A stretch of DNA of 64,000 nucleotides, from positions 6,052-70,051 of the IMG/VR virus record IMGVR_UViG_3300033075_001214, one strand, 5' to 3'. Of this stretch, positions 1,547-21,057 are shown piece after piece. The translations under genes were made by a program, and so were the position numbers. The DNA is from a virus (lineage: Duplodnaviria; Caudoviricetes). Positions within the stretch are counted from its first letter, which is position 1; the number at the start of each line of letters is the position of its first letter. The notes beneath the pieces are model-generated. The model saw only the letters and a list, made by a program, of their open reading frames with translations, was not told where the DNA came from and searched no databases.

Positions 1547-1548
1547 TA

Positions 1549-1710: not shown

Positions 1711-1713
1711 GGT

Positions 1714-1908: not shown

Positions 1909-1934
1909 TTAAATAACCTTTAAACAAATGACCA

Positions 1935-2999: not shown

Positions 3000-3003
3000 A
3001 TCC

Positions 3004-3315
3004 ATGAAAACAACGCTATTAAATCCGTTCTCTATAAGACTCAAGAAGCCGCCATTTATGGAAATGAGAACGGATCCAATATTTGAAAACGGTAATTTTA
3101 AAATTTATCAGTATTGTGATCAATACTTTATCCACACCTTTAAAAATATTGTGATTGCTGAGAGATGCAAACCAAACCCCACAATTTTCACCAACATAAA
3201 GGGAGAGACGCAACCAACCGAAGAAGCAGACATTTACCACCAGTTAGAACGCCCGCGCCAGGCAATGACTGAAGGCGTACAGGAGGCTAAAAAATTAAAA
3301 TTTGTAGTAAGATGA
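3004..3315 (+). CDS. Hypothetical early protein
   Basis: ORF track; tiling. Confidence 0.7.
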   Translation: MKTTLLNPFSIRLKKPPFMEMRTDPIFENGNFKIYQYCDQYFIHTFKNIVIAERCKPNPTIFTNIKGETQPTEEADIYHQLERPRQAMTEGVQEAKKLKFVVR

Positions 3316-3479
3316 AAGCTTATAAAATCAAATTTACCGGACGCTTAAAAAATGCAATCGGTAAGACGTACAGCCACACGATAACGGTAAAAGCAGAAAG
3401 TGAAGAAGCCGCGCGCCTGAAGATATACGACACGCACGACCACGCCAGTAATATAAAAATTAAACTATTGAAGCTATGA
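3312..3479 (+). CDS. Small early protein, 55 aa
   Basis: Manually translated MKAYKIKFTG...LLKL*; ATGA overlaps at both ends. Confidence 0.65.
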   Translation: MKAYKIKFTGRLKNAIGKTYSHTITVKAESEEAARLKIYDTHDHASNIKIKLLKL

Positions 3480-3664
3480 CAACGACCGAGAAATTTGATA
3501 CCATTTATGAAAGTTTTATAAATGGGCAGCGGACACAGACCCGCGAGCAATTCAAGAAGCTAACGAAACCCCAGCGCAAAGAGTTAATTAATTATTTGCG
3601 CGATGAATTCGACAACGTAGAGACCGCGACCGAGTGCAGAGAGTTTTTAATATCCATTTTATAA
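3476..3664 (+). CDS. Hypothetical early protein
   Basis: ORF track; ATGA overlap. Confidence 0.7.
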   Translation: MTTTEKFDTIYESFINGQRTQTREQFKKLTKPQRKELINYLRDEFDNVETATECREFLISIL

Positions 3665-3667
3665 CCC

Positions 3668-3696
3668 GAGCAAGCCCGGAGCAATCCGGGCAGCTC
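3668..3696 (+). promoter_or_regulatory. Intergenic GCAA-tetraloop hairpin without a U-tract
   Basis: gagc-aa-gcccgga GCAA tccgggc-a-gctc. Confidence 0.5.
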
Positions 3697-3712
3697 AAAA
3701 CCTTTTAAAAGT

Positions 3713-3988
3713 ATGAGTAAGTATATAAGAACAACACTAAAAAATTTCAGCGAGTTAACCGCCCGCCAAGTACTACACGCCCGCGACATCTTAGGAGAGG
3801 ACGCAGAAGAAACGCAGTGGGTAACAGACCCCACAGATAAAAACGCATGTTTACCGCTTTGCAATTTTATGCGCGCGCAGAATTCAAAACTTTGGGACGG
3901 GTTTTTTGGGGTGAGTTATTTCAGCGGCTATTTTATAAAGTTAGACCGAAGCCAGGAAATAGCTACTGTGGGTTACAGACATTGGTAA
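3713..3988 (+). CDS. Hypothetical early protein
   Basis: ORF track; WDG..G.SYFSG motif typical of small phage proteins. Confidence 0.7.
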   Translation: MSKYIRTTLKNFSELTARQVLHARDILGEDAEETQWVTDPTDKNACLPLCNFMRAQNSKLWDGFFGVSYFSGYFIKLDRSQEIATVGYRHW

Positions 3989-4011
3989 TGCAAACTAATT
4001 TTTAGAAAGCC

Positions 4012-4485
4012 ATGAAAGCAGAAATTCGAGATTATAAGTTAGATCCGCCATTTAACACAAACAGAGTTTATCAGGCGATTTTTGTCGATGGAGTAAAGAC
4101 CAATTTTTGGAGATTGAAACACCCCCAGCCAACAGACTTTTTAATTAACAAAAGTCTGCAGGACCTTGAGACCTTTTGCAGAATGATAAATGAAGGAGTA
4201 TTAAAACCCAGCAGCGAACTAGAGAGCTTTGATATTTGCAATTTTACTAAATGGAAACCCAAGAAAGTAAAAGTAATCCAGGCAGGAGAACAAGAGGAGC
4301 CCGATTATACGCAAAAACTATTTACCATATCCGGAAGCCCGCCAGACGTTGAAGAAGTAACCAAGAAAGCAGCTGAAAAACATTTTACCCAATATACAAA
4401 AATCGTAAACCGCGAAGCCGGGAAAATCCGGGACACCTGTTTAGTGATTTTATACGCCCGCGGAAGTTCATTTTATGCAATCTAA
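4012..4485 (+). CDS. Hypothetical early protein
   Basis: ORF track. Confidence 0.7.
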   Translation: MKAEIRDYKLDPPFNTNRVYQAIFVDGVKTNFWRLKHPQPTDFLINKSLQDLETFCRMINEGVLKPSSELESFDICNFTKWKPKKVKVIQAGEQEEPDYTQKLFTISGSPPDVEEVTKKAAEKHFTQYTKIVNREAGKIRDTCLVILYARGSSFYAI

Positions 4486-4513
4486 TTTTTAAACCAACAA
4501 AACGACCAAAAAC

Positions 4514-4930
4514 ATGAAAACAGTTTCAGATTTTAAGAAAGCCCTACAAGTAGGTACTAAGCTACACACAATATTTCATTGTGAAGCCAAGCGAGACGAG
4601 ACCGGCAACGTGTTAAGAGATCCGGACGGGTTACCAGTCTACACAGACAAAGACCTGGGAACCGCACCCGTGACAATTGTACAGACAACACAATTTGCCA
4701 TTGAGAGAACATGGAAAGACGGCACTAAAAAAGACAGCTGGTGTAAATACCCGAAGGCAAGCGAATGTGAAGTGAAAGAAAATAGTATAACTATTTTCGA
4801 AGACAACGACCGGAGAGGAAAAATAAAGGTTTTAACCTATACAATTGTAACCGCAACAGCCGCAGAGCGCACCAAATACGCAGGCATGACCACTGAAGAG
4901 AAAAGAACATACACAAATTCAGACCGATAA
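4514..4930 (+). CDS. Hypothetical early protein
   Basis: ORF track; AAAACGACCAA leader. Confidence 0.75.
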   Translation: MKTVSDFKKALQVGTKLHTIFHCEAKRDETGNVLRDPDGLPVYTDKDLGTAPVTIVQTTQFAIERTWKDGTKKDSWCKYPKASECEVKENSITIFEDNDRRGKIKVLTYTIVTATAAERTKYAGMTTEEKRTYTNSDR

Positions 4931-4933
4931 GCC

Positions 4934-5104
4934 ATGCAAACTATTTTAGAAGAGTTAACCACCAAGAAGGAGTTAATATTTAACCCGGAGACGTTAACAC
5001 ACGCACAGCGCGAGGAAATAATCCAAGCGAAGTACAGAGAAGATATTTATTTAACAGCCACACCAGACGGCAAATGGAAAGTTTGGAAACGAATTTTTAA
5101 CTAA
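4934..5104 (+). CDS. Small early protein, 56 aa
   Basis: Manually translated MQTILEELTT...WKRIFN*; fills the gap between genes. Confidence 0.6.
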   Translation: MQTILEELTTKKELIFNPETLTHAQREEIIQAKYREDIYLTATPDGKWKVWKRIFN

Positions 5105-5111
5105 TCAATTT

Positions 5112-5729
5112 ATGAAAACGCAACAATTTTCAAACCTCATTCAGATTGCAACCGGAAGGAATTTTCAGATTGCAACCGACAAAGAAGAGCTAACAAACGA
5201 AATGGATTATTTTGTTTACAGGATATTACCCGTAACAGGCAGGAAAATTTCATTCAAATGGACAGCGCCCAAGTCAGAAGAAAAATATCTAAGGTCATTT
5301 ATTACGGCCTTTACAACAAAGTACAGAGAGCCAAACCCAGCAGCATACAACCACGGCCCAGAATATTGTTATGGTGCCAGCAAATGGACAGACAAGACAC
5401 CAGAACAGCAAGAGGCAGCATATTACCACCACGCCAGTAATATGTACTCCAAAAAAGATTTAATGAACCAGGTTGAAGCTAATTTCAATAACCCAGGAAT
5501 AACAGCCGGACTAAATCGATACGGGTTTTATGCTACAGAATATGGAATAGGAACCTTTGTACTTTTTGCGACCCGATATGTAGAGCAAAGTATTTTTGAA
5601 ATGGCAGCCTATTTAAAACGCCAGGGGATTGCATTCAGTAACGAGTATTCAGACGCCCGTTGGGTTTTACGGTTTAAGATTAACGCCAGTAAGACCATAC
5701 ACGAAAACATTTTAGCATCATTTAATTAA
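5112..5729 (+). CDS. Hypothetical early protein
   Basis: ORF track, 205 aa. Confidence 0.75.
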   Translation: MKTQQFSNLIQIATGRNFQIATDKEELTNEMDYFVYRILPVTGRKISFKWTAPKSEEKYLRSFITAFTTKYREPNPAAYNHGPEYCYGASKWTDKTPEQQEAAYYHHASNMYSKKDLMNQVEANFNNPGITAGLNRYGFYATEYGIGTFVLFATRYVEQSIFEMAAYLKRQGIAFSNEYSDARWVLRFKINASKTIHENILASFN

Positions 5730-5735
5730 GACACC

Positions 5736-5945
5736 ATGAAGCCAGGAACCAGAATTTTATTTTCGAACGCAACCACACGCGAACACGCAGGAAGCCGCGA
5801 GCCTTTTTGGGGTAAGATTAAGGACACGTTGATACGAAACGGCCACACCGTTTATTTGACTGAATATTTGCAGCCAAGTAAGTACGGAGACCAGAGCACA
5901 CTAACAACGGTGAGACCGCACCAGATCGAAATGATTGAAGACTAA
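5736..5945 (+). CDS. Hypothetical early protein
   Basis: ORF track. Confidence 0.7.
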   Translation: MKPGTRILFSNATTREHAGSREPFWGKIKDTLIRNGHTVYLTEYLQPSKYGDQSTLTTVRPHQIEMIED

Positions 5946-5971
5946 GCAAACTAAATTTTAAAACGACCAAT

Positions 5972-6163
5972 ATGGAAACGATAGTATTTCAAATCGAATT
6001 AAATGACGGACGAGTATTTAGGGTATTTTGTGCCAATGCAACACAGAAGAAAAAGGTTATTGAAAGTTACTACAAGATTAAAGAGAAGGTGAAGGAGATA
6101 CGAACGGTAACCAACGGAGTACACACGCACCAGCAGTATGAGAAACTATTAACAACATTTTAA
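5972..6163 (+). CDS. Hypothetical early protein
   Basis: ORF track; TTTTAAAACGACCAA leader. Confidence 0.7.
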   Translation: METIVFQIELNDGRVFRVFCANATQKKKVIESYYKIKEKVKEIRTVTNGVHTHQQYEKLLTTF

Positions 6164-6174
6164 AACGACCAACT

Positions 6175-6405
6175 ATGAGTACAGGCCATTTAGTAAGACC
6201 AGACGGCACGATTAAGACCGAGCCGCACAAGCCAGGCAACGCCAACGGACTGCAGAAGCGATTAAGAGAATTGTACCTTGAGTATGTGAATGATCACTTG
6301 AGTCTATTTCACATTGCAGAACATTACGGACTTGATCCGGTAGACATAGACCAATTGATACATATCGGGAGAAAATTACACCAAGAATTTACGAACCATG
6401 ACTAA
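6175..6405 (+). CDS. Hypothetical early protein
   Basis: ORF track; TTTTAAAACGACCAA leader. Confidence 0.7.
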   Translation: MSTGHLVRPDGTIKTEPHKPGNANGLQKRLRELYLEYVNDHLSLFHIAEHYGLDPVDIDQLIHIGRKLHQEFTNHD

Positions 6406-6670
6406 GCAAACTAATTCCATAGACCTGAGCGAACTAAAAATAGGCGACAAAATTACGCACTATTGTTTTGGTCATCTTGTAGAGGGGACAGTCATCCAGA
6501 CGGACGGCATAGGCGTATGTACCAAGCACGAACCGATAAGATGGGGTAATGATGTATGTATTGAAACATGGATACAGCCCAGCGCCTATTTGCAGAAGAA
6601 ATGGGGAGCAGAAACCACGCCCGGAGCATGGTATAAAGGAGAGAGATTAAAATGTAAAGTAACAAGGTAA
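6398..6670 (+). CDS. Hypothetical early protein
   Basis: ORF track; overlaps with neighbours. Confidence 0.7.
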   Translation: MTKQTNSIDLSELKIGDKITHYCFGHLVEGTVIQTDGIGVCTKHEPIRWGNDVCIETWIQPSAYLQKKWGAETTPGAWYKGERLKCKVTR

Positions 6671-6975
6671 TGCCGTACACAACCGAGCGCGAGAAGCTAG
6701 ACAGTAAATTCCTGAAGAGGAGCGCTAAGTTAATTGAATGCCAGCGAGCAATGGTTCATTGGTGGCATGAGAAAGGTATGAGTATCCACAGTATAAGCAA
6801 ACTATTTAAGGTGAGCCGAAGATCCGTACAATTCATTTTATATCCGGACAGACACGTTAAGAACTTAGAAGATCGAGCAAAGCGAGGAGGAAGTAAGCAA
6901 TACTATGATCGGGAAAAGCATAATGAAGCTATGAATAACCATAGACGTTATAAACACAAGATATTAAAAAAGTAA
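6670..6975 (+). CDS. Helix-turn-helix DNA-binding protein
   Basis: GMSIHSISKLFKVSRRSVQFIL HTH pattern; basic C-terminus. Confidence 0.7.
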   Translation: MPYTTEREKLDSKFLKRSAKLIECQRAMVHWWHEKGMSIHSISKLFKVSRRSVQFILYPDRHVKNLEDRAKRGGSKQYYDREKHNEAMNNHRRYKHKILKK

Positions 6976-6979
6976 AGGC

Positions 6980-7023
6980 CCGGGGGAGTTTAAAACTTGG
7001 TCGTCTCTCCCGGTGTCCTTTTT
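6980..7023 (+). terminator. Probable intrinsic terminator with a 16-nt loop
   Basis: ccgggggag / ctctcccgg stem followed by a T-run. Confidence 0.5.
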
Positions 7024-7039
7024 AAAGCAAACTAATTTT

Positions 7040-7195
7040 ATGAATCTATACGAGTACACAATTGCATGGTCAAAAATCAAACACATGATGGAACCAAAAA
7101 TACCTATTTACACAGTCCAATGGAATCACCACCAATGGACCTTCACAGACGAGGCGGAAGCATGGAAATTTGCAAACTACTGGGGACTACTATGA
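7040..7195 (+). CDS. Small early protein, 51 aa
   Basis: ATG at 7040 within track ORF 7013..7195. Confidence 0.6.
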   Translation: MNLYEYTIAWSKIKHMMEPKIPIYTVQWNHHQWTFTDEAEAWKFANYWGLL

Positions 7196-7416
7196 AAACT
7201 ATATTTCTGTTACTATTACTAATCGCCTGCTCAGAGCCGGTGAAGTACGAAGAGACGCTGATTCGAATCACAGCGATTGAAGAGACGGCCACCGGATGTA
7301 CGTACAGCGTTGAAGCCGTAGTGCCCTACCAGCCGTACATAAAGACGCAAATCGAAGAGGATTGCGGCAAATACCAGGTAGGCGATAAAATTACAGTCCG
7401 TTGGATTGCTAATTAA
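7192..7416 (+). CDS. Small lipoprotein
   Basis: MKTIFLLLLLIAC lipobox; ATGA overlap (track ORF starts at 7066). Confidence 0.7.
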   Translation: MKTIFLLLLLIACSEPVKYEETLIRITAIEETATGCTYSVEAVVPYQPYIKTQIEEDCGKYQVGDKITVRWIAN

Positions 7417-7438
7417 CTAAAAACGAATATATTTGTTT

Positions 7439-7660
7439 ATGAAAAACTTAGATAGAATTTTTGCCGTGCTCAAGTCGTTAGGCTATGAGATCACTTTGGA
7501 GGAGAAACTGAAGGACTACCTGGATAGCTTGGACCTTGTTGAATTCGTCATGATGATTGAACAAGAGTTCAAGATCGTAGTCACTAACGAGGAGATCGCA
7601 GGAATCGTAACGGTGGAGGATGTATTGAAACTTGTCAACAAGAAACTAGATGCAAACTAA
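7439..7660 (+). CDS. acpP: Acyl carrier protein (phosphopantetheine-binding)
   Basis: LDSLDLVEFVMMIEQEFKI contains the D-S-L attachment motif; acidic, 73 aa; ...TVEDVLKLV C-terminal helix. Confidence 0.85.
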   Translation: MKNLDRIFAVLKSLGYEITLEEKLKDYLDSLDLVEFVMMIEQEFKIVVTNEEIAGIVTVEDVLKLVNKKLDAN

Positions 7661-7883
7661 TTTACTGTTATCCCAGACAGGGGCAGTGGCCCTATACCTT
7701 GCTGATCCAAGTAATTCGCAATTGGATTCAATAAACTATGGCAAGCCAACTGGAGGAGTTATTCGAGATGATAAGGCTTTCTTGCAGATTAATAATGGCG
7801 TATTGATTATTCCATCCGATAGAAGTTATAAGCGGTTCATTTCAAACTCATGGTATAACGACATAAACACAGACGAGTTATGA
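7650..7883 (+). CDS. Hypothetical protein
   Basis: ORF track; overlap tiling. Confidence 0.65.
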   Translation: MQTNLLLSQTGAVALYLADPSNSQLDSINYGKPTGGVIRDDKAFLQINNGVLIIPSDRSYKRFISNSWYNDINTDEL

Positions 7884-8098
7884 CTATATGCATGCCCAAT
7901 GAATGCACCTATCCCAATTGTCCATGCCCGCATCAACCGCTATATCGCATGCAAACTAATTTCGAAAAACCGTCCTATCAGGAACAGTTGAATTTTCTGG
8001 ATAGTTTGGGTGACAGCGTAATGATCCGGGCAATTAAGGAAAATGTAATCACTGTAAGAAACTTAGATTATGAGAAAGCCCCGCATCGCCAATCGTAA
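7880..8098 (+). CDS. Hypothetical protein with an N-terminal Cys cluster
   Basis: CMPNECTYPNCPC. Confidence 0.6.
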   Translation: MTICMPNECTYPNCPCPHQPLYRMQTNFEKPSYQEQLNFLDSLGDSVMIRAIKENVITVRNLDYEKAPHRQS

Positions 8099-8312
8099 TC
8101 CCGTGGTCCTGGAGACCTACACGCGCAGATATTACCGGGCGCATGAGATACCCGAAGTGTTAGGCATGACGCTGGAGGCATTTAATCACATCTATGAGCA
8201 ATTGACTGGAGAAACGTTCCCGCGCGGCCCCTCAAGAATTCCGGTTAAGGCAGTGGAATTAGTTCAGCAAGTCCAGGCAATGAAGAAGGAAGGTAAACAG
8301 ATCACGAAATAA
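8070..8312 (+). CDS. Putative HTH DNA-binding protein
   Basis: YYRAHEIPEVLGMTLEAF pattern. Confidence 0.55.
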   Translation: MRKPRIANRNPVVLETYTRRYYRAHEIPEVLGMTLEAFNHIYEQLTGETFPRGPSRIPVKAVELVQQVQAMKKEGKQITK

Positions 8313-8322
8313 AGAGATACTT

Positions 8323-8637
8323 ATGACAACAGATAAAGAGGAACTAAAAGATTTAAAGTTTTACATGAATAACGCAATGGATGATTTTGTAAGTACACCT
8401 ATAAGCGTCCTTCGTTATATCACAGAATTGGAATCTAAACTCGAAGCCAAAGACAAGGAGATTAAAAAGCTGAAAGAACAGGTATTAATCGGAGATATTT
8501 ATGCCGACTCAGTAGCCCGTGATGCGTTTGACGCTGGTTGGAGATTTAGACAAACCGAGATAGGCATAAGACCAGAGTCATCACAAGATAAAGACACTTA
8601 TTTTAAGCAATGGAATAAAACCATAATACCAACCTAA
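8323..8637 (+). CDS. Hypothetical coiled-coil protein
   Basis: ORF track. Confidence 0.7.
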   Translation: MTTDKEELKDLKFYMNNAMDDFVSTPISVLRYITELESKLEAKDKEIKKLKEQVLIGDIYADSVARDAFDAGWRFRQTEIGIRPESSQDKDTYFKQWNKTIIPT

Positions 8638-8644
8638 GTGAAAT

Positions 8645-8818
8645 ATGAAAGTTGAAACAGTTATAACAATTAGCTTGAAAACATCAAAAGAAGTATTTGA
8701 ATCTAAAGAGTTTCAAGATGTTATTAATAGTATCAAAACAGGAGAGATGAAAAGAGAATTTGAAAAGAGCCTTAAAATGAAGGCCGCATGTACCTATTGG
8801 ACTAATTATAAGCCATGA
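8645..8818 (+). CDS. Small protein, 57 aa
   Basis: Manually translated MKVETVITIS...YKP*; ATGA overlap with the next gene. Confidence 0.6.
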   Translation: MKVETVITISLKTSKEVFESKEFQDVINSIKTGEMKREFEKSLKMKAACTYWTNYKP

Positions 8819-8949
8819 AATACCTTATCCTTTTAATCCTACTGGCAAGCTGCTCACCTAAGGTAAGCAAGCACCAGAACGACTCGGTAGCTGATAGGTT
8901 GAGGCAAAGACACGCACCAGTAAAGACTCATAACCCAAGTATTCGATGA
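8815..8949 (+). CDS. Small lipoprotein, 44 aa
   Basis: MKYLILLILLASC lipobox; ATGA overlaps on both sides. Confidence 0.65.
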   Translation: MKYLILLILLASCSPKVSKHQNDSVADRLRQRHAPVKTHNPSIR

Positions 8950-9428
8950 TCAAATTTCTAAGCAGTAAAATTGTCCAGGCCTTCCCCCACAAGGACAAGA
9001 CACAAATTTTAAAATACATTCCGTTGATCTACGGAGTGGACAGCAATCTGAATAAGATTGAAGACCTGGTAGAGCGCAAGAAAATTGCGGCCGAGCAATG
9101 TGAGATAGAAGTCCCGGAGAATACCGAAGAACTTCGGAAAGTAATCATTGAATTCTTACGGCTCCAGCATCATAACAAGTTTGCTCTTTTAATCAGCAAG
9201 GAAGAACTATTGATAGAATGCCTGGATGTCCTAAGAGAACCCCTAGTCAATAGCAAGGATGATGACAAGCGGCTCAAGAACGTAAAGCTCAAGGGAGACG
9301 TGAATGAATTGTGTGACAAACTGGTTGCCGAAACAGAGCGCCTACGGATTGATATTTTCACCGAAGAGCATGCAGAAGAATCGAAGAAGGTCATTTCGAT
9401 CGAGGAACGGTTGAGAGCGAAAGGATGA
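8946..9428 (+). CDS. Helical protein, candidate terminase small subunit
   Basis: 160 aa, helical/coiled-coil; would directly precede terL if 9431-12181 were removed (positional inference only). Confidence 0.4.
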   Translation: MIKFLSSKIVQAFPHKDKTQILKYIPLIYGVDSNLNKIEDLVERKKIAAEQCEIEVPENTEELRKVIIEFLRLQHHNKFALLISKEELLIECLDVLREPLVNSKDDDKRLKNVKLKGDVNELCDKLVAETERLRIDIFTEEHAEESKKVISIEERLRAKG

Positions 9429-9430
9429 TT

Positions 9431-9458
9431 GTTATCCAACGTTTTAATGTTGGATAAC
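9431..9458. repeat. Terminal palindrome of array 1 (distal half of the split att site)
   Basis: GTTATCCAAC-8 nt-GTTGGATAAC, perfect 10-bp inverted repeat. Confidence 0.85.
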
Positions 9459-9904
9459 CGTTCTGCCTCTATGTGCAGTGCGTTTATTACAGATAAGTTG
9501 AACAATGAAATACTACAAGAAAATAAAAAATTTTAAACCAGCGCGTGGGCGATTCACCTAAATTAAAATGGAAAACATACAGCTATCACAAAACCTCACA
9601 GTTAATTACTTGACGACTATACAGCAAAGCCCCATGAAGGTGAGGTTCCATTGTACCTTTTTTGGAGAAGAGTTTATTGCGGATGTTTCAAAAAAGAATG
9701 TTGACAAAGATTGGGCAAGCATTGAGGGAGAAGGGCCAAGCGAATTATTTGACTCATTCACTTCACAAATGGAAGATGAGTATTGGGATAAGGTGAAGGA
9801 GTTGTTTAAAGAGTTCGAGAGCCAGGAGGTTTAAAATTTTTTATTTTCTCCGCACACATGAAGCTACAACGCACAGAACTAAGCATTGCACATAGAGGCT
9901 TGTT
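9456..9904. repeat. attC-like site 1 with a gene-containing loop
   Basis: AAC-cgttct-GCCTCTATGTGCAGTGC (9465-9481) pairs with GCATTGCACATAGAGGC (9883-9899)-tt-GTT; 16/17 bp. Confidence 0.8.
9568..9834 (+). CDS. Hypothetical protein inside the attC-1 loop
   Basis: ORF track, 88 aa. Confidence 0.75.
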   Translation: MENIQLSQNLTVNYLTTIQQSPMKVRFHCTFFGEEFIADVSKKNVDKDWASIEGEGPSELFDSFTSQMEDEYWDKVKELFKEFESQEV

Positions 9905-10113
9905 GTATGACGTTTGCCTCATGTGCGGCTGGGACAGGATTATGTAGGGCTGGACATTGCCATTGCATAATGGTTCTGGTGTATAGTGTCGTTGTGGCCC
10001 TACCCAAACTTAATGAGCCACACGGTTTTGCAACCTTTGGAAGTGCGTGGAAGTTGTGCGGGTTGCTTAACGGTGTGAGCGGTGAAACTGAAACTAAATA
10101 AATTGAAACTTAT

Positions 10114-10482
10114 ATGAATGAAACTCAAATTTTTCACGGAATACAACACATCGGTCTATTCATGGGATGGACTCATGATGAATTAAGGGTTTACTTAACT
10201 GTAAAATATCCTCAATCTAAAAATCTCGGCAAGTTGGCTTTCAATGAAAGTTGGGATTTACTTATGCCTGTGATTGATAAAATTGAAACCATTAAAACAA
10301 TTAACGATTCAGAGAAATTTAGATTTAACATTACTGGCGATGGTATAAGTATAACCCGTTTTGATGATGGGAGTGGTGTAATCTCACAAAGAGTTAATGA
10401 TTCAACTAATAGACTTCAATACGCCTTTGAGGTTGTTGTGGAATTTATAGAATGGTATAACCAACCTAATGTATACGCATAA
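10114..10482 (+). CDS. Hypothetical protein (SWD.LMPV..KIE...EFI.WYN family)
   Basis: ORF track; shared motif with the next gene. Confidence 0.8.
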   Translation: MNETQIFHGIQHIGLFMGWTHDELRVYLTVKYPQSKNLGKLAFNESWDLLMPVIDKIETIKTINDSEKFRFNITGDGISITRFDDGSGVISQRVNDSTNRLQYAFEVVVEFIEWYNQPNVYA

Positions 10483-10492
10483 CTAAAACTAA

Positions 10493-10840
10493 ATGATTAT
10501 GGAAGAGTCTAAAATCGAATTAAACAAACTTATTGCAACCTATCGGGGTAGTATTATCGTACAAAGATACCATGCTGAATGGCATCATTTAATGCCTGTA
10601 GTTCAAAAGATTTATAAGTTTTTAGAGGATAACTTTCTCGATGATTTTTGGACTACTAAAGGTATCTATTGGCAACATTCAAAGTTTAACAGTATGCCAA
10701 TTTACACCCCAATAGACATAGTTTACAAAAGGGTGATTGAATTTATAAAATGGCACAATAATACAATCCTTGTTAATAATAGTAAAAATGAATTGTACCA
10801 CGATTACCAAGCTGAAATAAAAAAAATAAATGACCTATGA
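10493..10840 (+). CDS. Hypothetical protein, paralog of 10114..10482
   Basis: EWHHLMPVVQKI...EFIKWHN. Confidence 0.8.
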   Translation: MIMEESKIELNKLIATYRGSIIVQRYHAEWHHLMPVVQKIYKFLEDNFLDDFWTTKGIYWQHSKFNSMPIYTPIDIVYKRVIEFIKWHNNTILVNNSKNELYHDYQAEIKKINDL

Positions 10841-11132
10841 TATGACACAAGAGCAAGTTAATGAAATGGAAAGTTGGTGCGATTGGGCATGCGCCAATAA
10901 AGAAAGAACTTCCAAAGTTTGGAAGGCTTTAAGACTTGGATACATACAGGGTATCTATCGAAGTAATCTTAAAAATGAAGAGGTTTTAAAACTACTGAAA
11001 TCAATGACCTTATCAATGGCAGCTCATCCTGACTGTTTTAAAAGACCGGACGGTGCGGCAAGTGAGTTTTACGACCTTGTCGAAATGGCTGAAAAAGTTC
11101 TCGAAGGTACTTTATATACTCGGCACGGATAA
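10830..11132 (+). CDS. Hypothetical protein
   Basis: ORF track; overlaps the previous gene. Confidence 0.7.
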   Translation: MTYDMTQEQVNEMESWCDWACANKERTSKVWKALRLGYIQGIYRSNLKNEEVLKLLKSMTLSMAAHPDCFKRPDGAASEFYDLVEMAEKVLEGTLYTRHG

Positions 11133-11211
11133 ACAAACTTAGGATGTGTGAGGGGTTTGCGCGGTGTGTTTATTGGTGCCGCCTGAGGGGCCACAATGCA
11201 CTATACACGGT

Positions 11212-11301
11212 GTTAGCGGTAGTGACAAAACGAAGCGTTGGCCAAAAGTAGGAAGAAGCTCTGCGCCTGCTTTTTTCAAGGGTTTTGGCATTACCGCTAA
11301 C
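11212..11301. repeat. Matched GTT...AAC cassette ends (non-coding interval)
   Basis: GTTAGCGGTAgTGaCAAAAC / GTTTTGgCAtTACCGCTAAC, 18/20 inverted repeat. Confidence 0.85.
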
Positions 11302-11328
11302 AAGTAATTTGTAATTTTCTATTGTAAC
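11299..11328. other. attI-like site 1
   Basis: AACAAGTAATTTGTAATTTTCTATTGTAAC, 22 bp upstream of the recombinase start; 26/30 identical to the reverse complement of 55820-55849. Confidence 0.7.
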
Positions 11329-11350
11329 CATTTGATAAACAATTAATGCC

Positions 11351-12181
11351 ATGAATATTTCTGCTCACATCGACTTCTTCAAACAGGAAATGAAACGTAG
11401 GGGATTAGGTAATTCAACCATTCAAAGCTATCCGTCCTACGTCAAAACATTCTTTGAACAATCAAAGGCAGATCACCCAAAGAATATTCATGAGCAAGAA
11501 ATCAGAGAGTTCTTAGGCAGATTCACGGAGCCCAATACACAACGGGCCTATCATTCGGCAATCAAAAAATTCTATGCTATCTGTTTGAATCAGGAACATA
11601 AGTTTCGATACATACCTTATTGCAAAGCCAGCAAAAAACTTCCTATTGTTCTATCCGTTGAAGAAATTCAACGGATGTTTGATGTTTGTGAAAATCTTAA
11701 ACATCGTGCTATCCTAGCATTGCTTTATTCATGCTCGTTACGCTCGTCAGAATTAATCAATCTAAAATGGACTGATATCGACCGATCAAGAATGATTATT
11801 AACATCCGACAGGCCAAAGGAAAGAAGGATAGGCAAGTTGGATTAAATCAAAAACTCATTGAAGTACTGGAGAACTACTATCGAAAGTACACTCCAAAGG
11901 AATATGTTTTCAATGGTCAGTTTTCTTTACAATATTCCAAAGAAAGCGTCCTGCAAGTTATCAAGCAGTTAGCCGATAAAGCACACATTGACAATAAACG
12001 TGTCTACACTCACCTCATGCGTCATTGCTCCGCTACACACATGCTGGAAAGCGGAGTTGACTTGAATCTCATTCAACGGATACTTGGTCACTCGTCTGTT
12101 AAAACGACCGCGATATACGCTCACATTTCGCATAACTTAATTTCACGTATTAACTCCCCGTTGACCGCCATCAACTTATAG
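11351..12181 (+). CDS. int: Tyrosine recombinase, IntI-related, short form
   Basis: R131, K156, H221-x-x-R224, H247, Y256; N-terminal SAM-like domain; KKLPIVLS.EE, KGKKDR and C-terminal SPL motifs. Confidence 0.92.
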   Translation: MNISAHIDFFKQEMKRRGLGNSTIQSYPSYVKTFFEQSKADHPKNIHEQEIREFLGRFTEPNTQRAYHSAIKKFYAICLNQEHKFRYIPYCKASKKLPIVLSVEEIQRMFDVCENLKHRAILALLYSCSLRSSELINLKWTDIDRSRMIINIRQAKGKKDRQVGLNQKLIEVLENYYRKYTPKEYVFNGQFSLQYSKESVLQVIKQLADKAHIDNKRVYTHLMRHCSATHMLESGVDLNLIQRILGHSSVKTTAIYAHISHNLISRINSPLTAINL

Positions 12182-12191
12182 TCTATCTTTG
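12161..12191 (+). promoter_or_regulatory. Bacteroidota-type promoter for terL
   Basis: TTG (12161-63), 20-nt spacer, TATCTTTG (12184-91). Confidence 0.6.
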
Positions 12192-12200
12192 CGTATCCCC

Positions 12201-14330
12201 ATGTACGCCAAGACAGACAACCCCTATCGATTCAAATACCTTGTCACAGGAATAACCGGACCCGGGATTCCTTGCGTCTACCTTCCGCCAGAACCCCCAG
12301 ATGAAGAAGTACTGTTTAAGAAAGAACAGAAGTTCGTTAGGCCAGTACCGCCCGAGTATCTGAAGACTTGGATGCAAGAATTTGTTGAAGGCCGAGAGAA
12401 AGACCCTGAGTTTATACATCCGCACCAAAATGAATTAACCAAATGGGAAGATCGGGAGTTTGAAAGATCAACCACTGGAGTGTGGATTTGGAATAAGGGA
12501 GTAAAGACCTATCTCACTGGCCCGTATTATAAATTTCTTACTGCCTGGGAATTATATTTTGGATTCCCAGATTATCGAGAAACGGATAAAGAAACATTTT
12601 ACTGGATTAAATATTGGGAAGAAGATCCAAATTCCTATGGCGGAACATTCAATACAATAAGGCGAGAAGGGAAGTCTGCAAAGATGGGGTTTTGGCTAAA
12701 TGACAGAACATCCACAAACTTTAATCACTTTGCCGGAATGCAGGGGGAAGATAATTCTAAGATTCAGGATTTCTATAATGAAATGGTGATGAATCCATTT
12801 TATAAAATGCCTTACTACTATCAGCCCGAATACGATACAACCACGCTACAAAAAAAAGGAGTACTGTTTAAGGATTCACCAAAGCGAAATAAAAAGCGCA
12901 AGTCATCTGGAAAGATGGTTTTGGGTTCTAAGATGGACTATAGAACAAGCGAGCCGAACAAATATGATCAGGCAATGCTTAATTCTTATGTCATGGAGGA
13001 AGCTGGGAAATTACTAACGAGTAGCGTTAAAGATCGATGGAAGTTTGTAAAGCCTTGTTTAAAGAAAGGTATATTAATTCGAGGCAAAGCATTCATTGGA
13101 ACCACCGTTGAATTTATGGATGTATCTGGCAAAGGAGGTAAAGCATACCAGAAACTATGTTTTGAATCTGACTTTGATATTCGGCAAAAGAATGGACAGA
13201 CCATTTCAGGATTGTATGCCGCCATGATGCCAGGTGATTGCGCACTGGAGGGGTTCTTTGATGAGCATGGTATCCCTGATCGCAAAGCCGCCATGAAATG
13301 GATCCTTGACGAGCGCGATGCTGTTAAAGATAACCCGAAAGATTATTCTGATTTAGTTAGAAAATATCCGACCAACTGGAATGAAGTATTTTACATCTCC
13401 GCAGACAAGTGCGAGTTCAATGTAACTATCCTTCAAGACCGTAAGGCAGAACTTCAAATGAATCCACCCCCATTACGGAGAGTTAACCTAAGCTGGCAGG
13501 ACGGTAAGCGATTTACTAAGATTGTTATAAGTGATGATCCGGCAAATGGTTGGTGTAAGATGGCATGGATTCCAAAAGACAAAGAATTAGAGTTGCTGAA
13601 TAATGTAGGTGTAAGGATGGAAAACGGAAGACAAAAATATTTTCCGAAGAACAATGCCATATTTTCAGCAGGAACCGACCCGATTGATTACGGAGTACGC
13701 GTAGATAACATGAGTGCTGAAGGCACCGATTCAAGAAGATCAAGACCCGTAATGAGTGTGAAGAGAAAATACGATCCTAACATTGATGGATTTTTAAGTC
13801 AGGAATTATTGGAGCGTAGAGCCCGGGAAAAATATCCCTATAAAACTAACAAACGGATATTAATGATGGACCATCGGCCTAGCGAGCCAAATATTTACTT
13901 TGAGCGATGCCTGATGATTTGTTGGTTGTTTGGAGTTCCAATGATGTGCGAAAGTCAAAAGCCAGGAGTAATCAATTACTTCAAAGAACATGGGTGCGAA
14001 GACTTTCAGCTCAACAAGTATGTCCCCAGTGCGCAATTAAAACCGTCAGACTTCGTAGACGGCACACCCGCCTCCACGATGATGAATCAGGAACTAACAG
14101 GACTTTTAGCAAGCCTGATCGAATACTTTGGGCACTTAGAACCCTTTATTGAATTCGTTGAAGATTTTTTACTATTCGATCCCACCGACACCAAGAAGTT
14201 TGACTATGCTATGTGTGCAGGCTGGAATGAAGTAGCCGAGAAAGTCAAACCCAAAACCACCGAAGTACCGCAGCACAAGATAACGGAGTATTTCAGGCGC
14301 TTCCGAAGGGATGGAAGTGTGATCAAATAG
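12201..14330 (+). CDS. terL: Terminase large subunit (crAss-like size)
   Basis: Walker A IRREGKS, Walker B VMEEAGK, RNase H AGTDP; 709 aa from the ATG at 12201. Confidence 0.9.
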   Translation: MYAKTDNPYRFKYLVTGITGPGIPCVYLPPEPPDEEVLFKKEQKFVRPVPPEYLKTWMQEFVEGREKDPEFIHPHQNELTKWEDREFERSTTGVWIWNKGVKTYLTGPYYKFLTAWELYFGFPDYRETDKETFYWIKYWEEDPNSYGGTFNTIRREGKSAKMGFWLNDRTSTNFNHFAGMQGEDNSKIQDFYNEMVMNPFYKMPYYYQPEYDTTTLQKKGVLFKDSPKRNKKRKSSGKMVLGSKMDYRTSEPNKYDQAMLNSYVMEEAGKLLTSSVKDRWKFVKPCLKKGILIRGKAFIGTTVEFMDVSGKGGKAYQKLCFESDFDIRQKNGQTISGLYAAMMPGDCALEGFFDEHGIPDRKAAMKWILDERDAVKDNPKDYSDLVRKYPTNWNEVFYISADKCEFNVTILQDRKAELQMNPPPLRRVNLSWQDGKRFTKIVISDDPANGWCKMAWIPKDKELELLNNVGVRMENGRQKYFPKNNAIFSAGTDPIDYGVRVDNMSAEGTDSRRSRPVMSVKRKYDPNIDGFLSQELLERRAREKYPYKTNKRILMMDHRPSEPNIYFERCLMICWLFGVPMMCESQKPGVINYFKEHGCEDFQLNKYVPSAQLKPSDFVDGTPASTMMNQELTGLLASLIEYFGHLEPFIEFVEDFLLFDPTDTKKFDYAMCAGWNEVAEKVKPKTTEVPQHKITEYFRRFRRDGSVIK

Positions 14331-14368
14331 CAATTTTTTATTACATTTATACCGCGATACCAAGTACT

Positions 14369-14451
14369 AAAGAAATTAAAACAGTCCCCGATTGTTTCGT
14401 GCCTAACTGATTCTTTCGAATCGACTTGGATCGCCACGGAATAATTCGGGG
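14369..14451 (+). promoter_or_regulatory. Structured 5' leader of HNH gene 1
   Basis: AAAGAAATTAAA followed by a 16-bp stem, 14386-14401/14435-14451. Confidence 0.55.
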
Positions 14452-14461
14452 CGTTTTATTT

Positions 14462-15013
14462 ATGGAAGAAATCTGGAAAGACATAGTTGGATTTGAGGGA
14501 TACTATCAAGTATCTAATTTAGGAAGAGTGAAATCATTAGATAGATTTATATTTAGGGTTTCTCATAACAGACATAAACCATCAACGGTTTTTCAAAAAG
14601 GGAAAATACTTTCATTAATCAAATATTATACACCTACCAGAAAAGATTATTATTATCGGGTAACATTAAAAAAGAACAAACCAAAATTTATTGTACATCG
14701 ATTAGTTGCAACAGCATGGATACCAAATCCATATAACTTACCCGAAGTCAATCATATAAACAAAATAAAAACTGATAATAGAGTAGTCAATTTAGAATGG
14801 GTTAATAGACGAGAGAATATGTCTCATGCATACCAAGGTAAGCCTAATAAAAGTTCTCAATTTACTGGAGTCGCATGGGCTAAAAGAGACAAAAAGTGGG
14901 AGTCTTACATAACTATTAATGGCAAAAGAAAATCATTAGGTTATCATGATACCGAAGAATTAGCAAATCAAGCCTACCAAGCAGCCCTTTTTGCTCATAA
15001 ATTAAAACAATAA
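14462..15013 (+). CDS. NUMOD4-HNH-AP2 homing endonuclease
   Basis: EEIWKDIVGFEGYYQVSNLGRVKS; VNHINKIKTDNRVVNLEW; SQFTGVAW...SLGYHDTEELA. Confidence 0.9.
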   Translation: MEEIWKDIVGFEGYYQVSNLGRVKSLDRFIFRVSHNRHKPSTVFQKGKILSLIKYYTPTRKDYYYRVTLKKNKPKFIVHRLVATAWIPNPYNLPEVNHINKIKTDNRVVNLEWVNRRENMSHAYQGKPNKSSQFTGVAWAKRDKKWESYITINGKRKSLGYHDTEELANQAYQAALFAHKLKQ

Positions 15014-15022
15014 GTTTTTCAT

Positions 15023-15030
15023 TAACTTTG
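15023..15030 (+). promoter_or_regulatory. -7 promoter element before the portal gene
   Basis: TAACTTTG matches TAnnTTTG. Confidence 0.5.
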
Positions 15031-15047
15031 TTCAAATACGATAAAAC

Positions 15048-17447
15048 ATGGCAGATGTCTATAATGGGGCCTATCCGTGGCCAGATGAATTTTGTCCGCC
15101 AGCCAAAAAAGAAAAAGATGCTTACGGACTACAGGCCGCCAAAGCCATGTACTACGCCAAAAACCGCTACGGATACCGCCTTTTTGATAACGACACCAAC
15201 TACAACGCGCTCGTAGAACTTGCTCAGGGACGCCAAAGCACCGACAACATCCGCAGAATGTTTGGATTCCACGACAACAAGGAATCCACCATGGATGACA
15301 ACGGTACGCTGGCCTATGTGGACATTCAAGTGATCAACCTGGCAACCAAGTATATCAACCGGACCGTAGCCAAACTTCAACGTAATAAATACGATATTAA
15401 TCTTTCAGCCATTGATCCTATTTCGGTAGACGAAGCCAAGGAAATGAATGCGAAGATCGAAACCTTCTACGAGCTCAGGGATTGGTTTAAGAATATCAAA
15501 CTCGATCCGAAAAAGTTCTTCCCAGATTTAAACTTAGACTTGCTCCCGGAATTTCCGGAAGAGTTAATGTTTCAGTTGAGCACTAACCAGAAGATTCAGA
15601 AAGTTATTGACGGAGAGAAGACAATCAAGTTACTCAACAACGTCATCAACAACACAGACCAGATCATGCGCGAGTATGATTGGGATAGCACGGTAATCGG
15701 GCGCGGGCATGTGCATTGTTACCTGGATGAGAACAAGATGCCGCGAGCCCAGCGAATTAATCCGAAGTACTGGGGAGGAAGTTATACCGAGAACGAAGAT
15801 TATAGCAGGTCCGAGTATCAGTTCTTTATTGAGTTTATCACCCGGAATCAGTTTAAGAAAGAGGCCGAGAACAAACTACCAAAGGACAAGATTGACGAAG
15901 TAATTAATGGGCACACCTTCGCCAATTCAATCAGTTCATACGGCAGCCTTCCTGATTTGCTCGATCATTACGATGGGTTAGAATATATCCCGGTGATGCG
16001 ATTCTATTTCCTGAGTAACGATAACAAATCAATCGTTACCTGGAAGAACGACAACGGGCAGCCGATGATTGATGAGCGCGGTTATGAGTACAATCAGTCG
16101 GAAGAAGCCACCCGGGAGCGCAATATCAAACGAATTTCTTATACATCCGTCTATGGAGGCACCTGGGTATTAGATAGCAACATTGTTTACGATTACGGAC
16201 GCAGGGATATTCCGCGGACGCAATTAGTCAACACGCGATTACCGATCATTACGTTTGCGCCTAACATGAAAGAGGGCCGGATTGTAAGCCTATTGGCTCA
16301 GATGGTGGAACCATTAACCATGCTAAACGTAGCCTGGAACAAAATCAAAGACATCCTTGCTAAAGGCCGGATGAATGTATGGGAATTAAATTTGAGTTCG
16401 TTTGAAAATGTAGCGTTAGGAGCAGGCGGAAAGAATTGGACCCCGCAGGAAGCAGTAGACTTTTTATTTCAGACCAATATTGCCGTTAGCCGGAACAATA
16501 CCAATCAATACGGTCAGCAGGTAGCCCCAGCCGTTCGTGAGATGGCTTCGGGATTACAATTAGCGGATTACTACAACACAATTGCCCAGTGTATCCAGTT
16601 CTTAAACGATCTTTCGGGGGCTACTGTAGCCGAACAGCCCCAGATGCCAGACCGGTTAGCCGTTGGTGCCATGAAAGCCAATATTGCAGCCGGAAATGAA
16701 GCCATTGAATATCTGGTCAACGGACACCGGCAAGTATATCACCAGGTCACCCACATGCTTTTGTTACTTACTCAAGCCGCTAAGCGTGACAAAGTAGCTA
16801 TCCAAGGAATGATTCCGGCATTAGGGAAATACACGACCGAGTATTTTGAGGTACCCGATTCACTCCCATATTGTGAATACGGATTAATGATGGAGACTGA
16901 GCCGAGCGAAGAAGAGTGGATGGCATTCTACGCAGAAGTAGCGTTGTCCGTTCAGGAAGGACGCCTCAATAGTTCTGATTCCGCATTCATCCGCATGGTG
17001 AAGAACCTGAAGCAAGCACGGTTTATTATGGCTAACCGCGAGCGCATCAATGAAATGAAGGCCGCACAATTCCGTCAACAGGAACAACAATTCCAGATGC
17101 AGGTAGGTGCCGATGCCGATAACCGCAAGACCGAACGCGAGATGGCATTGCTCGATAAGAAGAAGGAGGACGAAAAAGAGTTGATGGCTATTCAGGCACA
17201 AATTGATGATGCCATGATGACTAAGAAAGCTATGTTAGACGGTGAAGTCAACCAGGTATCCAAAATGGTTGAGCAGCAGATCAAGAAGCAGCAGGGCATC
17301 GATACAATTCTCAAAGAGGCACTACGATATAAGGGTGAGGTTTATAAATCAGATAAAAAGTTTCAGTCTGATACATACAAAGCTCAAAAACAAGTAGAGG
17401 CCGCAGAAATTACCTCAGAGAACAAACCAAAACCAGTCAAAAAATAA
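15048..17447 (+). CDS. Portal protein
   Basis: 799 aa after terL; helical C-terminal barrel; crAss-like size and synteny. Confidence 0.85.
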   Translation: MADVYNGAYPWPDEFCPPAKKEKDAYGLQAAKAMYYAKNRYGYRLFDNDTNYNALVELAQGRQSTDNIRRMFGFHDNKESTMDDNGTLAYVDIQVINLATKYINRTVAKLQRNKYDINLSAIDPISVDEAKEMNAKIETFYELRDWFKNIKLDPKKFFPDLNLDLLPEFPEELMFQLSTNQKIQKVIDGEKTIKLLNNVINNTDQIMREYDWDSTVIGRGHVHCYLDENKMPRAQRINPKYWGGSYTENEDYSRSEYQFFIEFITRNQFKKEAENKLPKDKIDEVINGHTFANSISSYGSLPDLLDHYDGLEYIPVMRFYFLSNDNKSIVTWKNDNGQPMIDERGYEYNQSEEATRERNIKRISYTSVYGGTWVLDSNIVYDYGRRDIPRTQLVNTRLPIITFAPNMKEGRIVSLLAQMVEPLTMLNVAWNKIKDILAKGRMNVWELNLSSFENVALGAGGKNWTPQEAVDFLFQTNIAVSRNNTNQYGQQVAPAVREMASGLQLADYYNTIAQCIQFLNDLSGATVAEQPQMPDRLAVGAMKANIAAGNEAIEYLVNGHRQVYHQVTHMLLLLTQAAKRDKVAIQGMIPALGKYTTEYFEVPDSLPYCEYGLMMETEPSEEEWMAFYAEVALSVQEGRLNSSDSAFIRMVKNLKQARFIMANRERINEMKAAQFRQQEQQFQMQVGADADNRKTEREMALLDKKKEDEKELMAIQAQIDDAMMTKKAMLDGEVNQVSKMVEQQIKKQQGIDTILKEALRYKGEVYKSDKKFQSDTYKAQKQVEAAEITSENKPKPVKK

Positions 17448-17449
17448 CT

Positions 17450-17553
17450 TATATTTGAATTATCGTAATTGTCATCTACAGTAGATTACGAAAAAGAAAT
17501 TAAATCCCCCACATGAGGGAGGCGAGTAGATGCGCTGAACTCAGGTGGGGGAT
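17450..17553 (+). promoter_or_regulatory. Promoter and structured leader of HNH gene 2
   Basis: TATATTTG (17450-57); AAAGAAATTAAA (17493-504); ATCCCCCAC/GTGGGGGAT stem. Confidence 0.55.
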
Positions 17554-17574
17554 ATTTTTTTAACATCTACAAAA

Positions 17575-18132
17575 ATGGAAGAAATTTGGAAAGACATTAA
17601 GAATTGGCAGGGGTTCTATCAGGTAAGCAGTGAGGGAAGGGTCCGTTCATTGGAAAGAACTATAGTAACAAAAAAGAATACCAAGCTAAAAATTGAATCA
17701 AGAATACTTAGTATAGCAAAAAATAAATGGGGATACAACCATGTTACCTTTTGGTTAAATAGGAAACAGCAGCATAAGAAAGTACATATAATGGTGGCTG
17801 AGTATTTTGTAGAGAAAATTAACGGATGTAACCAAGTAAATCATAAGGATAAAAATAAAGACAATAATCATTACACTAATTTAGAATGGGTTAGTAACCG
17901 AGAGAATTGCTCTCATTCACACGATAAAAAAAGATGCACATCTAAATACACAGGCGTATCATTTAAAAGAAATCTTAATAAGTGGGTAGCTCAAGCATAC
18001 ATATCGGGACAATCAAGATATCTAGGACTTTTTGAAACTGAGGAAGATGCCTCTGACGCATACCAAAATGCGTTAATGAAAAATAATATAATTAACAGGC
18101 ACTCCATTAAAAAAGAAAAGGCCACAAAATAA
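17575..18132 (+). CDS. NUMOD4-HNH-AP2 homing endonuclease
   Basis: MEEIWKDIK...; VNHKDKNKDNNHYTNLEW; SKYTGVSF...YLGLFETEEDA. Confidence 0.9.
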   Translation: MEEIWKDIKNWQGFYQVSSEGRVRSLERTIVTKKNTKLKIESRILSIAKNKWGYNHVTFWLNRKQQHKKVHIMVAEYFVEKINGCNQVNHKDKNKDNNHYTNLEWVSNRENCSHSHDKKRCTSKYTGVSFKRNLNKWVAQAYISGQSRYLGLFETEEDASDAYQNALMKNNIINRHSIKKEKATK

Positions 18133-18303
18133 ATTATGACCTTTTTAATGCTTTCTCCCGGAGGTTGGCGTCTCCGGGAGCCCTAAACTAATTGTATGAG
18201 GTTATCCCGTCTGGATAACACTACAAATGAAACAAATAAATTTGGTTTTTTCAAATCAATAGAATTTTAACGACCTTCGTAACGACAAACAACCCCAAAT
18301 ATC

Positions 18304-19488: not shown

Positions 19489-19528
19489 CCGCGTCTTTGG
19501 TCAGGGAAACCAGTAACCAAAGAAAAAA

Positions 19529-20992: not shown

Positions 20993-21001
20993 AAAAATCC
21001 C

Positions 21002-21034: not shown

Positions 21035-21057
21035 AAAACTAAGTAACCCAACAAAAA

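Follow-up and report, generated by a model that had tools for sequence, protein, structure and literature searches.

The DNA analysed here (the window, 64,000 nucleotides) comprises bases 6052-70051 of the virus record IMGVR_UViG_3300033075_001214, a 70-kb contig with an estimated completeness of 91%. In its left part, a gene for a compact tyrosine recombinase is flanked by accessory genes and the terminase gene. A docking site resembling the attI site of integrons precedes the recombinase gene and is followed leftwards by two cassettes of small genes (array 1) and a closing palindrome, and a second set of such parts (array 2) is found far to the right (Table 1). Taken together, these elements very probably constitute a phage-encoded gene-capture platform of the integron type, a reading drawn from sequence comparison, and the platform is apparently complete and active.

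Table 1. Coordinates of the recombinase gene, the docking sites and the cassettes in the window (nt, nucleotides; aa, amino acids; ORF, open reading frame).
Feature	Position	Strand	Details
Compact tyrosine recombinase	11351-12181	+	276 aa; Pfam Phage_integrase 8e-38, Phage_int_SAM_4 (N-terminal domain) 1e-10
Docking site, attI-like	11299-11340	+	core AAC 11299-11301, then conserved stretch with two TTGTAA repeats; alignments of relatives begin here
Cassette 2 (1330 nt)	9972-11301	+	outer arms ~9978-10005/11188-11213; core hairpin arms 11212-11223/11290-11301
Cassette 1 (513 nt)	9459-9971	+	outer arms 9465-9481/9883-9899; core arm 9903-9914; degenerate end 9960-9971 (AAT)
Array 1 distal palindrome	9431-9458	+	arm 9431-9442, loop 9443-9446, arm 9447-9458 ending TAAC; DNA fold z = -5.6
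Second docking motif	55820-55849	-	inverted copy; no adjoining recombinase gene
Array 2 cassette A (450 nt)	55848-56297	-	ORF 55895-56251; end arm 55848-55859
Array 2 cassette B (401 nt)	56298-56698	-	hairpin site 56568-56711, classical type; then ORF 56310-56531 (73 aa)
Array 2 distal palindrome	56698-56726	-	z = -4.9; overlaps stop codon of gene 56722-57432 (-)

The 30-nt docking motif, which an earlier model-made annotation (the original prediction) had noticed before the recombinase gene, lies at 11299-11328 and is separated from the recombinase ATG by 22 nt. It is matched exactly twice in the window, the second time on the minus strand of array 2, against no match expected from 100 shuffles. 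The crossover position at the docking site can be placed only to within TAAC. The matched GTT...AAC cassette ends, the hairpins and the closing palindrome that had been predicted to the left of the motif were all found where they had been placed, the palindrome having arms of 12 nt, and this palindrome is interpreted as the original docking site's outer half. In cassette 1, a perfect 22-nt inverted repeat (9518-9539/9828-9849) surrounds an ORF of 88 aa (9568-9834), and cassette 2, whose outer arm pair was found by eye, carries three ORFs (10114-10482, 10493-10840 and 10830-11132); none of the four belongs to a family. All cargo ORFs of both arrays are directed at the docking site, in array 1 in the same sense as the integrase. 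Read in the integrase sense, the order of parts is gene, YAAC arm, hairpin, GTT arm, gene, YAAC arm, docking site and integrase. Both site regions of array 1 fold more stably on the plus strand than on the minus strand (-23.2 versus -18.0 kcal/mol for 11186-11322 and -20.3 versus -16.8 kcal/mol for 9880-10006).

The repetition of this grammar at 55820-56726 was equally confirmed: starting from the inverted second docking motif, the minus strand presents its parts in the order seen in array 1. The ORF of cassette B is enclosed by core arms at 56568-56579 and 56297-56309, and the hairpin site of this cassette shows a match of about 70% to two of the related loci described below (L143 and L183). 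The sole integrase of the record is located 44 kb away. Array 2 is comparable to the clusters of attC sites lacking an integrase (CALINs) known from virulent phages: it has two cassettes, a terminal palindrome and a docking motif but no nearby integrase, and its sites are of the type found in the family described here. The Cys-rich ORF of cassette A (118 aa) starts in the loop of the cassette site and crosses the outer arm and the core (56099-56101), and the recombination site of this cassette also serves as coding sequence.

The generality of the site grammar was assessed in about 150 loci with a related integrase (handles beginning with L), which were obtained from metagenome and genome scans. 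Besides L141, the closest relative treated below, some 50 of these loci have the grammar in common with the window. In nearly all of about 70 loci listed, with integrases 45-96% identical to that of the window, a core ending YAAC is found approximately 50 nt before the integrase start, the right side of this core being conserved and the left side variable. Strict core pairs were defined as GTTR at the start of one 12-nt arm and YAAC at the end of a second, with at least 11 of 12 positions in Watson-Crick complementarity and a spacing of up to 1.5 kb. Such pairs are enriched 12-fold upstream of the integrases, where 63 occur in 116 kb (0.54/kb), compared to 7 in 158 kb downstream (0.044/kb). 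Their consensus is GTTRNNNNNNGT with ATNNNNNNYAAC (12 nt each). The middle six bases are private to each unit and complementary inside it in 63 of 63 strict pairs, which had been preselected for complementarity, so that the scarcity of pairs downstream of the integrase serves as the control. Position 11 of the pair is always a G-T mispair, and this asymmetry is never flipped within any array. Complementary ends would be expected of each unit because a circle cut at the cores joins both private core arms. Two looser searches gave little: a permissive core-pair scan (G-T allowed, 10 of 12 positions) returned 1128 matches and was uninformative, and a 16-nt docking-site pattern, run over viral contigs, hit 117 stretches, nearly all by chance, the real ones being loci already known.

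A gene is enclosed by most core pairs, and the spacers of 50-170 nt between successive pairs fold as one common hairpin, which consists of a TAAC/GTTA box, a bulge of 4-5 nt confined to the 5' side, 4 bp of stem, a mismatch, a further 12-18 bp and a variable loop. The position of the gene differs between loci. In L001, L149, L136 and array 2 of the window, the gene is enclosed by the core arms, as is classical, and in array 1, L006 and the cultured Freya phages introduced below it is enclosed by the outer arms. For a test of the common fold, 26 hairpin sites were folded singly, and the structure of one member was mapped onto the others and counted. Paired cells amounted to 78.5%, compared to 63.5 +/- 1.8% in shuffled sites (0 of 500 shuffles as high), and the covariation score was 0.38, compared to 0.16 for shuffled sites and 0.08-0.18 for slid partners. 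Two-sided changes were seen in 12 of the 15 pairs of the common fold. The integrase-sense strand folds more stably in 22 of the 26 sites (Wilcoxon p = 3e-4). RNAalifold predicted no pairs on a MAFFT alignment of the sites, because the variable loops spoil the alignment. At 3-5 nt past the core, the docking site of the window (11302-11320) contains a word resembling TATATGTA or TTTGTAA. In one class of cassette sites (L006 9583-9600 and L141 6623-6640, for example), GTATATGAG-like words stand 5-7 nt past the core, and a second class has a different, GC-rich outer arm. The word past the core may be the binding word for a second recombinase subunit.

The comparison of related phages for variable cassettes between conserved flanks had been proposed beforehand as a check, and it unveiled exactly such variation, with breakpoints at the predicted cores. 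The integrase of L141 is 96% identical to that of the window, and synteny extends to both sides (L141 432-4200 corresponds to window 5948-9458 and L141 9937-20824 to window 11287-22574). Between these shared flanks lies unrelated DNA, 5.7 kb in L141 and 1.8 kb in the window. Both breaks follow TAAC, the left one at the end of the palindrome at 9458 and the right one before the docking motif. In six further loci (L001, L002, L006, L126, L127 and L201), the alignment to the window begins at 11287-11299, with different cargo leftward. The two units that had been predicted from the sequence (9458-9970 and 9971-11300) match these homology breaks. The cargo of the relatives includes a DPPY-type methylase (L001, identified by eye), a C5 methylase (L002, 1.6e-45), which is flanked by non-coding ends conserved with cassette 2, and an N6/N4 methylase (L141, 2e-28) together with many small ORFs without a family. 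The cassette DNA of array 1 had no match among the 150 related loci, and an exact-protein look-up of the last cassette ORF returned the source contig and near-copies only, with no second context.

Variation is also evident between samples. Metagenomes of wastewater and activated sludge, from ten studies in all, contain near-identical DNA. One contig from another wastewater sample corresponds to 10068-11300 with 0 substitutions and one gap, and its next 471 nt are unmatched from 11301 onwards. In three other metagenomes, contig cover is little or none at 9619-9969 and is back in the 9970-10086 bin. Other wastewater contigs have the stretch from 10108 to ~11118 (11108-11120) replaced, by which the three ORFs of cassette 2 are swapped and the site sequences kept; the foreign continuation past 10108 is the same in two studies. 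Replacements that leave the sites in place are reminiscent of arrays whose sites are homogeneous, such as the Vibrio repeats.

The platform as a whole seems to be passed from one phage backbone to another. In L006, integrase and docking site (9940-10828, compared with window 11298-12181 and 55806-55858) are 93% identical at the protein level; in the rest of this contig, genes are only about 50% identical to those of the window and their order is different. An inversion between the two docking motifs was considered as the cause of the gene order in L006 and, by reasoning, fails to explain it. A tblastn search with the terminase and portal of the window found no match in 20 more distant integrase loci; the module therefore sits in different phage backbones. 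L001 (IMGVR_UViG_3300020036_003211) contains an inverted self-duplication (1426-7263 and 7467-12924), both parts of which match window 11298-18375 in opposite directions, and which is most likely an assembly artefact.

The clearest case of variation by whole units is provided by the cultured Polaribacter phages Freya_1 to Freya_10 (L279/L281-L288, MT732463-MT732472). Their integrase is 31% identical to that of the window, and their gene order is the same, with small ORFs, the integrase and, further on, the terminase. The flanks are 99.9-100% identical among these phages, and the last conserved gene is 0 nt away from the docking site in Freya_1, ~842 nt in Freya_2, 1744 nt in Freya_5, 4040 nt in Freya_8 and 4942 nt in Freya_10. 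These lengths correspond to no unit in Freya_1, which represents an empty docking site, unit 1 in Freya_2, units 1 and 2 in Freya_5, all units except unit 2 (902 nt) in Freya_8 and all units in Freya_10. Each unit boundary follows a 12-nt arm ending YAAC. Such gain and loss of whole units, together with the variable content of the relatives, supports the claim of the original prediction that the phage captures and rearranges accessory genes. The array differences go unmentioned in the paper that described these phages, where the integrases were taken as a sign of temperate potential only (PMC8776804).

This temperate interpretation could be extended to the window: the recombinase would integrate the phage through an attP site overlapping the docking motif, the variable DNA would be a moron island and the hairpins would be terminators. 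Accessory genes are often found beside attP, and the integrase does adjoin a conserved site. The judgement of the authors who described the Freya and Leef phages points in the same direction (PMC8776804). As the sole explanation, however, ordinary lysogeny is extremely improbable. It leaves unexplained the repeated cores of the array, the private complementary core arms and the covarying hairpins, the second docking motif with an array lacking an integrase and the whole-unit differences among near-identical cultured phages. Moreover, what lies to the left of the core is not host DNA but phage DNA, in synteny with L141, and bacterial relatives of the enzyme adjoin long cassette arrays. A second, integrative role for the same enzyme is compatible with the data. 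A search of 401 Bacteroidota genomes for the terminase of the window gave no match, a sample that says nothing on lifestyle. In all phage-clade loci with enough sequence, cassettes or phage DNA adjoin the core.

The enzyme at the centre of the proposed gene-capture platform had been described as an IntI-related recombinase, which holds insofar as it is classed, from its sequence, as an IntI/Xer-type enzyme; it is not an IntI, because the IntI-specific domain is absent and every curated cut-off is missed. The catalytic residues R131, K156, H221, R224, H247 and Y256 are unchanged across five relatives. In an alignment to VchIntIA (2a3v), residues 11-173 pair with 10-177 and residues 195-272 with 241-318, which leaves 21 residues in place of the 63 of VchIntIA. 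Likewise, positions 179-237 of the integron-integrase profile TIGR02249 find no counterpart in the recombinase, which reaches 167.5 bits with this profile (cut-off 265) and 90 with PRK15417 (cut-off 435). The Xer models are not reached either (XerA_Arch 201 against 220, XerD 170 against 330 and XerC 154 against 335). The closest solved structure is that of the archaeal XerA (4a8e, 1e-30). The recombinase and IntI have in common the SAM_4 type of N-terminal domain and an SPL tail at the C-terminus. Within the integron-like subgroup of a tyrosine recombinase survey, the insertion is described as incompletely conserved (PMC8138268). A search at E <= 1e-30 returned 2667 clusters of homologous recombinases, about 275-290 aa long and named only XerD or tyrosine recombinase. 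Since thousands of homologous recombinases exist, the recombinase system is not unique to the phage of the window.

Bacterial relatives of the enzyme are found beside chromosomal arrays in Flagellimonas, Maribacter, Pedobacter, Sediminibacterium, Cyclobacteriaceae and others (contigs L239, L229, L249, L246, L226, L240, L221, L217 and L257). These integrases are 36-44% identical to that of the window, equally lack the IntI domain and have the same 12-nt core grammar alongside. In L226, the array follows the integrase on its downstream side and occupies the opposite strand. The reversed direction of the cargo, towards attI, which had been noted from the window alone, is real and clade-wide in phages: in the phage-type loci, the gene is found on the integrase-sense strand, the foldable one, in 56 cassettes, whereas in the bacterial chromosomal arrays the gene is on the opposite strand throughout, which is the classical integron orientation. 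In an unrooted integrase tree of 114 sequences, made by a quick search, one clade of 72 rows (support 99 in the Shimodaira-Hasegawa-like approximate likelihood ratio test, SH-aLRT) contains 30 of 30 phage-orientation loci including the window, and 8 of 10 classical-orientation loci lie outside it. On this tree, the orientation of the cassette gene is seen as a property of the clade.

The same data bear on the idea that the inverted core arms are DNA inversion sites through which phage genes undergo phase variation. Bacteroidota commonly possess invertons, and each gene is surrounded by 12-nt inverted repeats beside a tyrosine recombinase. Yet the orientation is uniform both in the phage clade and, in the opposite sense, in the chromosomal arrays, the G-T asymmetry of the arms stays fixed within every array, and relatives vary by the presence or absence of units, not by inversion. 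The probability left to this idea is next to negligible.

As an integron-type platform, the system can be pictured as follows. The recombinase would cut and rejoin DNA at a short core, which reads YAAC on its own coding strand and GTT on the other, and which is present at the docking site upstream of the recombinase gene and at one end of each cassette. Recombination between two cores would release a cassette as a circle, entry would take place at the docking site, and rows of accessory genes could thereby be built, reordered and traded between phages. Each cassette possesses two complementary arm pairs, the 12-nt core pair and the longer outer pair, which in the circle would form one long imperfect stem with a loop at each end, and the cargo may occupy either side of this stem. 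The substrate is most likely the folded single-stranded DNA of the integrase sense, as with attC sites. The cargo genes run in the same direction as the phage operon and the integrase, so that their expression would come from read-through and not from an integron promoter. Array 2 would be served in trans.

Several observations weigh against this mechanism. Classical integron integrases require the IntI-specific domain for hairpin sites, and the enzyme of the window is without it. The junction at 9971 is degenerate (AAT instead of AAC), and its arm pairs poorly with 9903-9914. With the cargo inside the outer arms, the complete hairpin of cassette 2 needs a loop of 1.2 kb. In phages, the strand that folds better is also the mRNA-sense strand, so that RNA structure could partly explain the bias. 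No circle and no empty site from the same population were seen in the data, which are contigs and hide rare forms. Finally, the breaks at 10108 and ~11118 in the other wastewater contigs coincide with the edges of conserved site sequence and not with cores, and the deletion in Freya_8 falls within 69 nt of repeat similarity and could have been produced by homologous recombination as well.

These last two points, and the conserved non-coding ends of ~70-140 nt that flank differing cargo in the window, L002 and other samples, would also suit a shuffling in which the recombinase is incidental and the hairpin repeats merely serve homologous recombination or template switching when phages co-infect, as in the model for T4-type promoter stem-loops. 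The replacements bounded by 10108 and ~11118 could indeed derive from homologous recombination. As an account of the whole system, such shuffling is very improbable, as the breaks at the docking site are exact although only ~11-12 nt are shared with the cassette ends, and the private six-base complementarity within each unit fits a circle cut at the cores and is not expected from homologous exchange. In addition, the link to this recombinase clade spans dozens of loci and several phage backbones.

Beyond the window, a wider picture is favoured with moderate confidence. A separate, phylum-wide lineage of integron-type systems would exist in Bacteroidota and their phages, with compact recombinases that never had or have lost the IntI domain, and in one phage-borne clade the cassettes would be mirror images, their gene being on the strand that folds. 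Phages would thus maintain a cassette pool separate from the one of their hosts, through which small accessory and counter-defence genes such as orphan DNA methylases would be traded, and the site would be a two-loop stem with cargo in either loop.

The usual view of integrons is that of bacterial devices reliant on a special integrase domain, considered rare in Bacteroidota and almost absent from phages. The window shares with classical integrons, such as those of class 1 and the chromosomal ones of Vibrio, a tyrosine recombinase gene with a docking site at its 5' end and a GTT/AAC crossover core, arrayed units that each end in an imperfect palindrome with AAC/GTT cores, and first bases of a unit that complement its own far end. 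Also alike are the paired inner and outer boxes, in which structure is conserved over sequence, the better folding of one strand and the variation of content by whole units between relatives. When an integron is read on the bottom strand, even the order of elements is identical. What differs from known integrons is the compact non-IntI enzyme, the mirror-image cargo and the two arrays. The window enzyme lacks the IntI-specific domain and stays below the 265-bit cut-off, its core box has 12 nt with a fixed G-T mispair compared to 7 nt in integrons, and its cargo genes face the docking site, whereas integron cassette genes face away from attI. Its cargo may sit inside a hairpin loop, and the system is carried by a phage, with two platforms for one enzyme.

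Fragments of bacterial integrons have been described in some phages, and CALINs in virulent phages including Polaribacter phage P12002L; no cognate phage recombinase was reported for the arrays of virulent phages, and their sites were assayed with the bacterial IntI1 (Qi et al., 2023; PMC9892861). The window, whose array 2 is a cluster of this kind, has in common with these phages, one of them a phage of Bacteroidota, the hairpin-bounded cassettes and the DNA methylases among the cargo. The phage of the window differs from these in encoding its own non-IntI enzyme next to a docking site. In bacterial genomes, almost no integrons were detected in Bacteroidetes by IntegronFinder 2 (PMC9024848). 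In a search of the literature, no description of the present phage-encoded system was found.

The compact two-domain build is shared with the Xer recombinases (XerC/XerD and XerA), but the window has no dif-like 28-nt site, no partner recombinase and no context of chromosome-dimer resolution. That folded single-stranded DNA can be a substrate of Xer-type enzymes is illustrated by the single-strand hairpin integration of CTX-type phages by XerCD. In T4-type phages, small accessory genes flanked by conserved promoter stem-loops are exchanged as modules in hyperplastic regions. Homologous recombination has been proposed as the means by which these stem-loop cassettes move, and no dedicated recombinase, docking site or AAC/GTT cores are known to be associated with them.

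A phage with a complete platform run by a simpler enzyme would widen the scope of integrons and raises the question of which parts of IntI are indispensable to the recombination of hairpins. It would offer a concrete mechanism for the swapping of small accessory genes at fixed hot spots by phages. The enzyme family is abundant (the 2667 clusters mentioned above), yet named only XerD or tyrosine recombinase. The cultured Freya_1 to Freya_10, with their unit-wise array differences, make the system tractable, and it is conceivable that the compact enzyme and its sites can be used as a recombination tool.

In the remainder of the window, nearly all genes are located on the plus strand, and the recombinase gene is followed on its 3' side by genes for the large terminase (12189-14330) and the portal (15048-17447). 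No matches were obtained in the window with Rfam at the gathering threshold or with a tRNA scan, and blastn with the array gave no match among isolated phages. The sole blastn match of window 8000-15000 is an HNH endonuclease outside the cassette region. The ORF at 14426-15013, in the gap between terminase and portal, shows a DNA match of ~72% over 130 nt to HNH homing endonucleases of Staphylococcus and Enterococcus phages and carries an AP2 domain on the gene call of the source; insertion of a homing endonuclease is the probable origin of this ORF. A small early gene (7439-7660) has a weak Pfam match to PP-binding (acyl carrier protein) in the annotation precomputed for the source contig.

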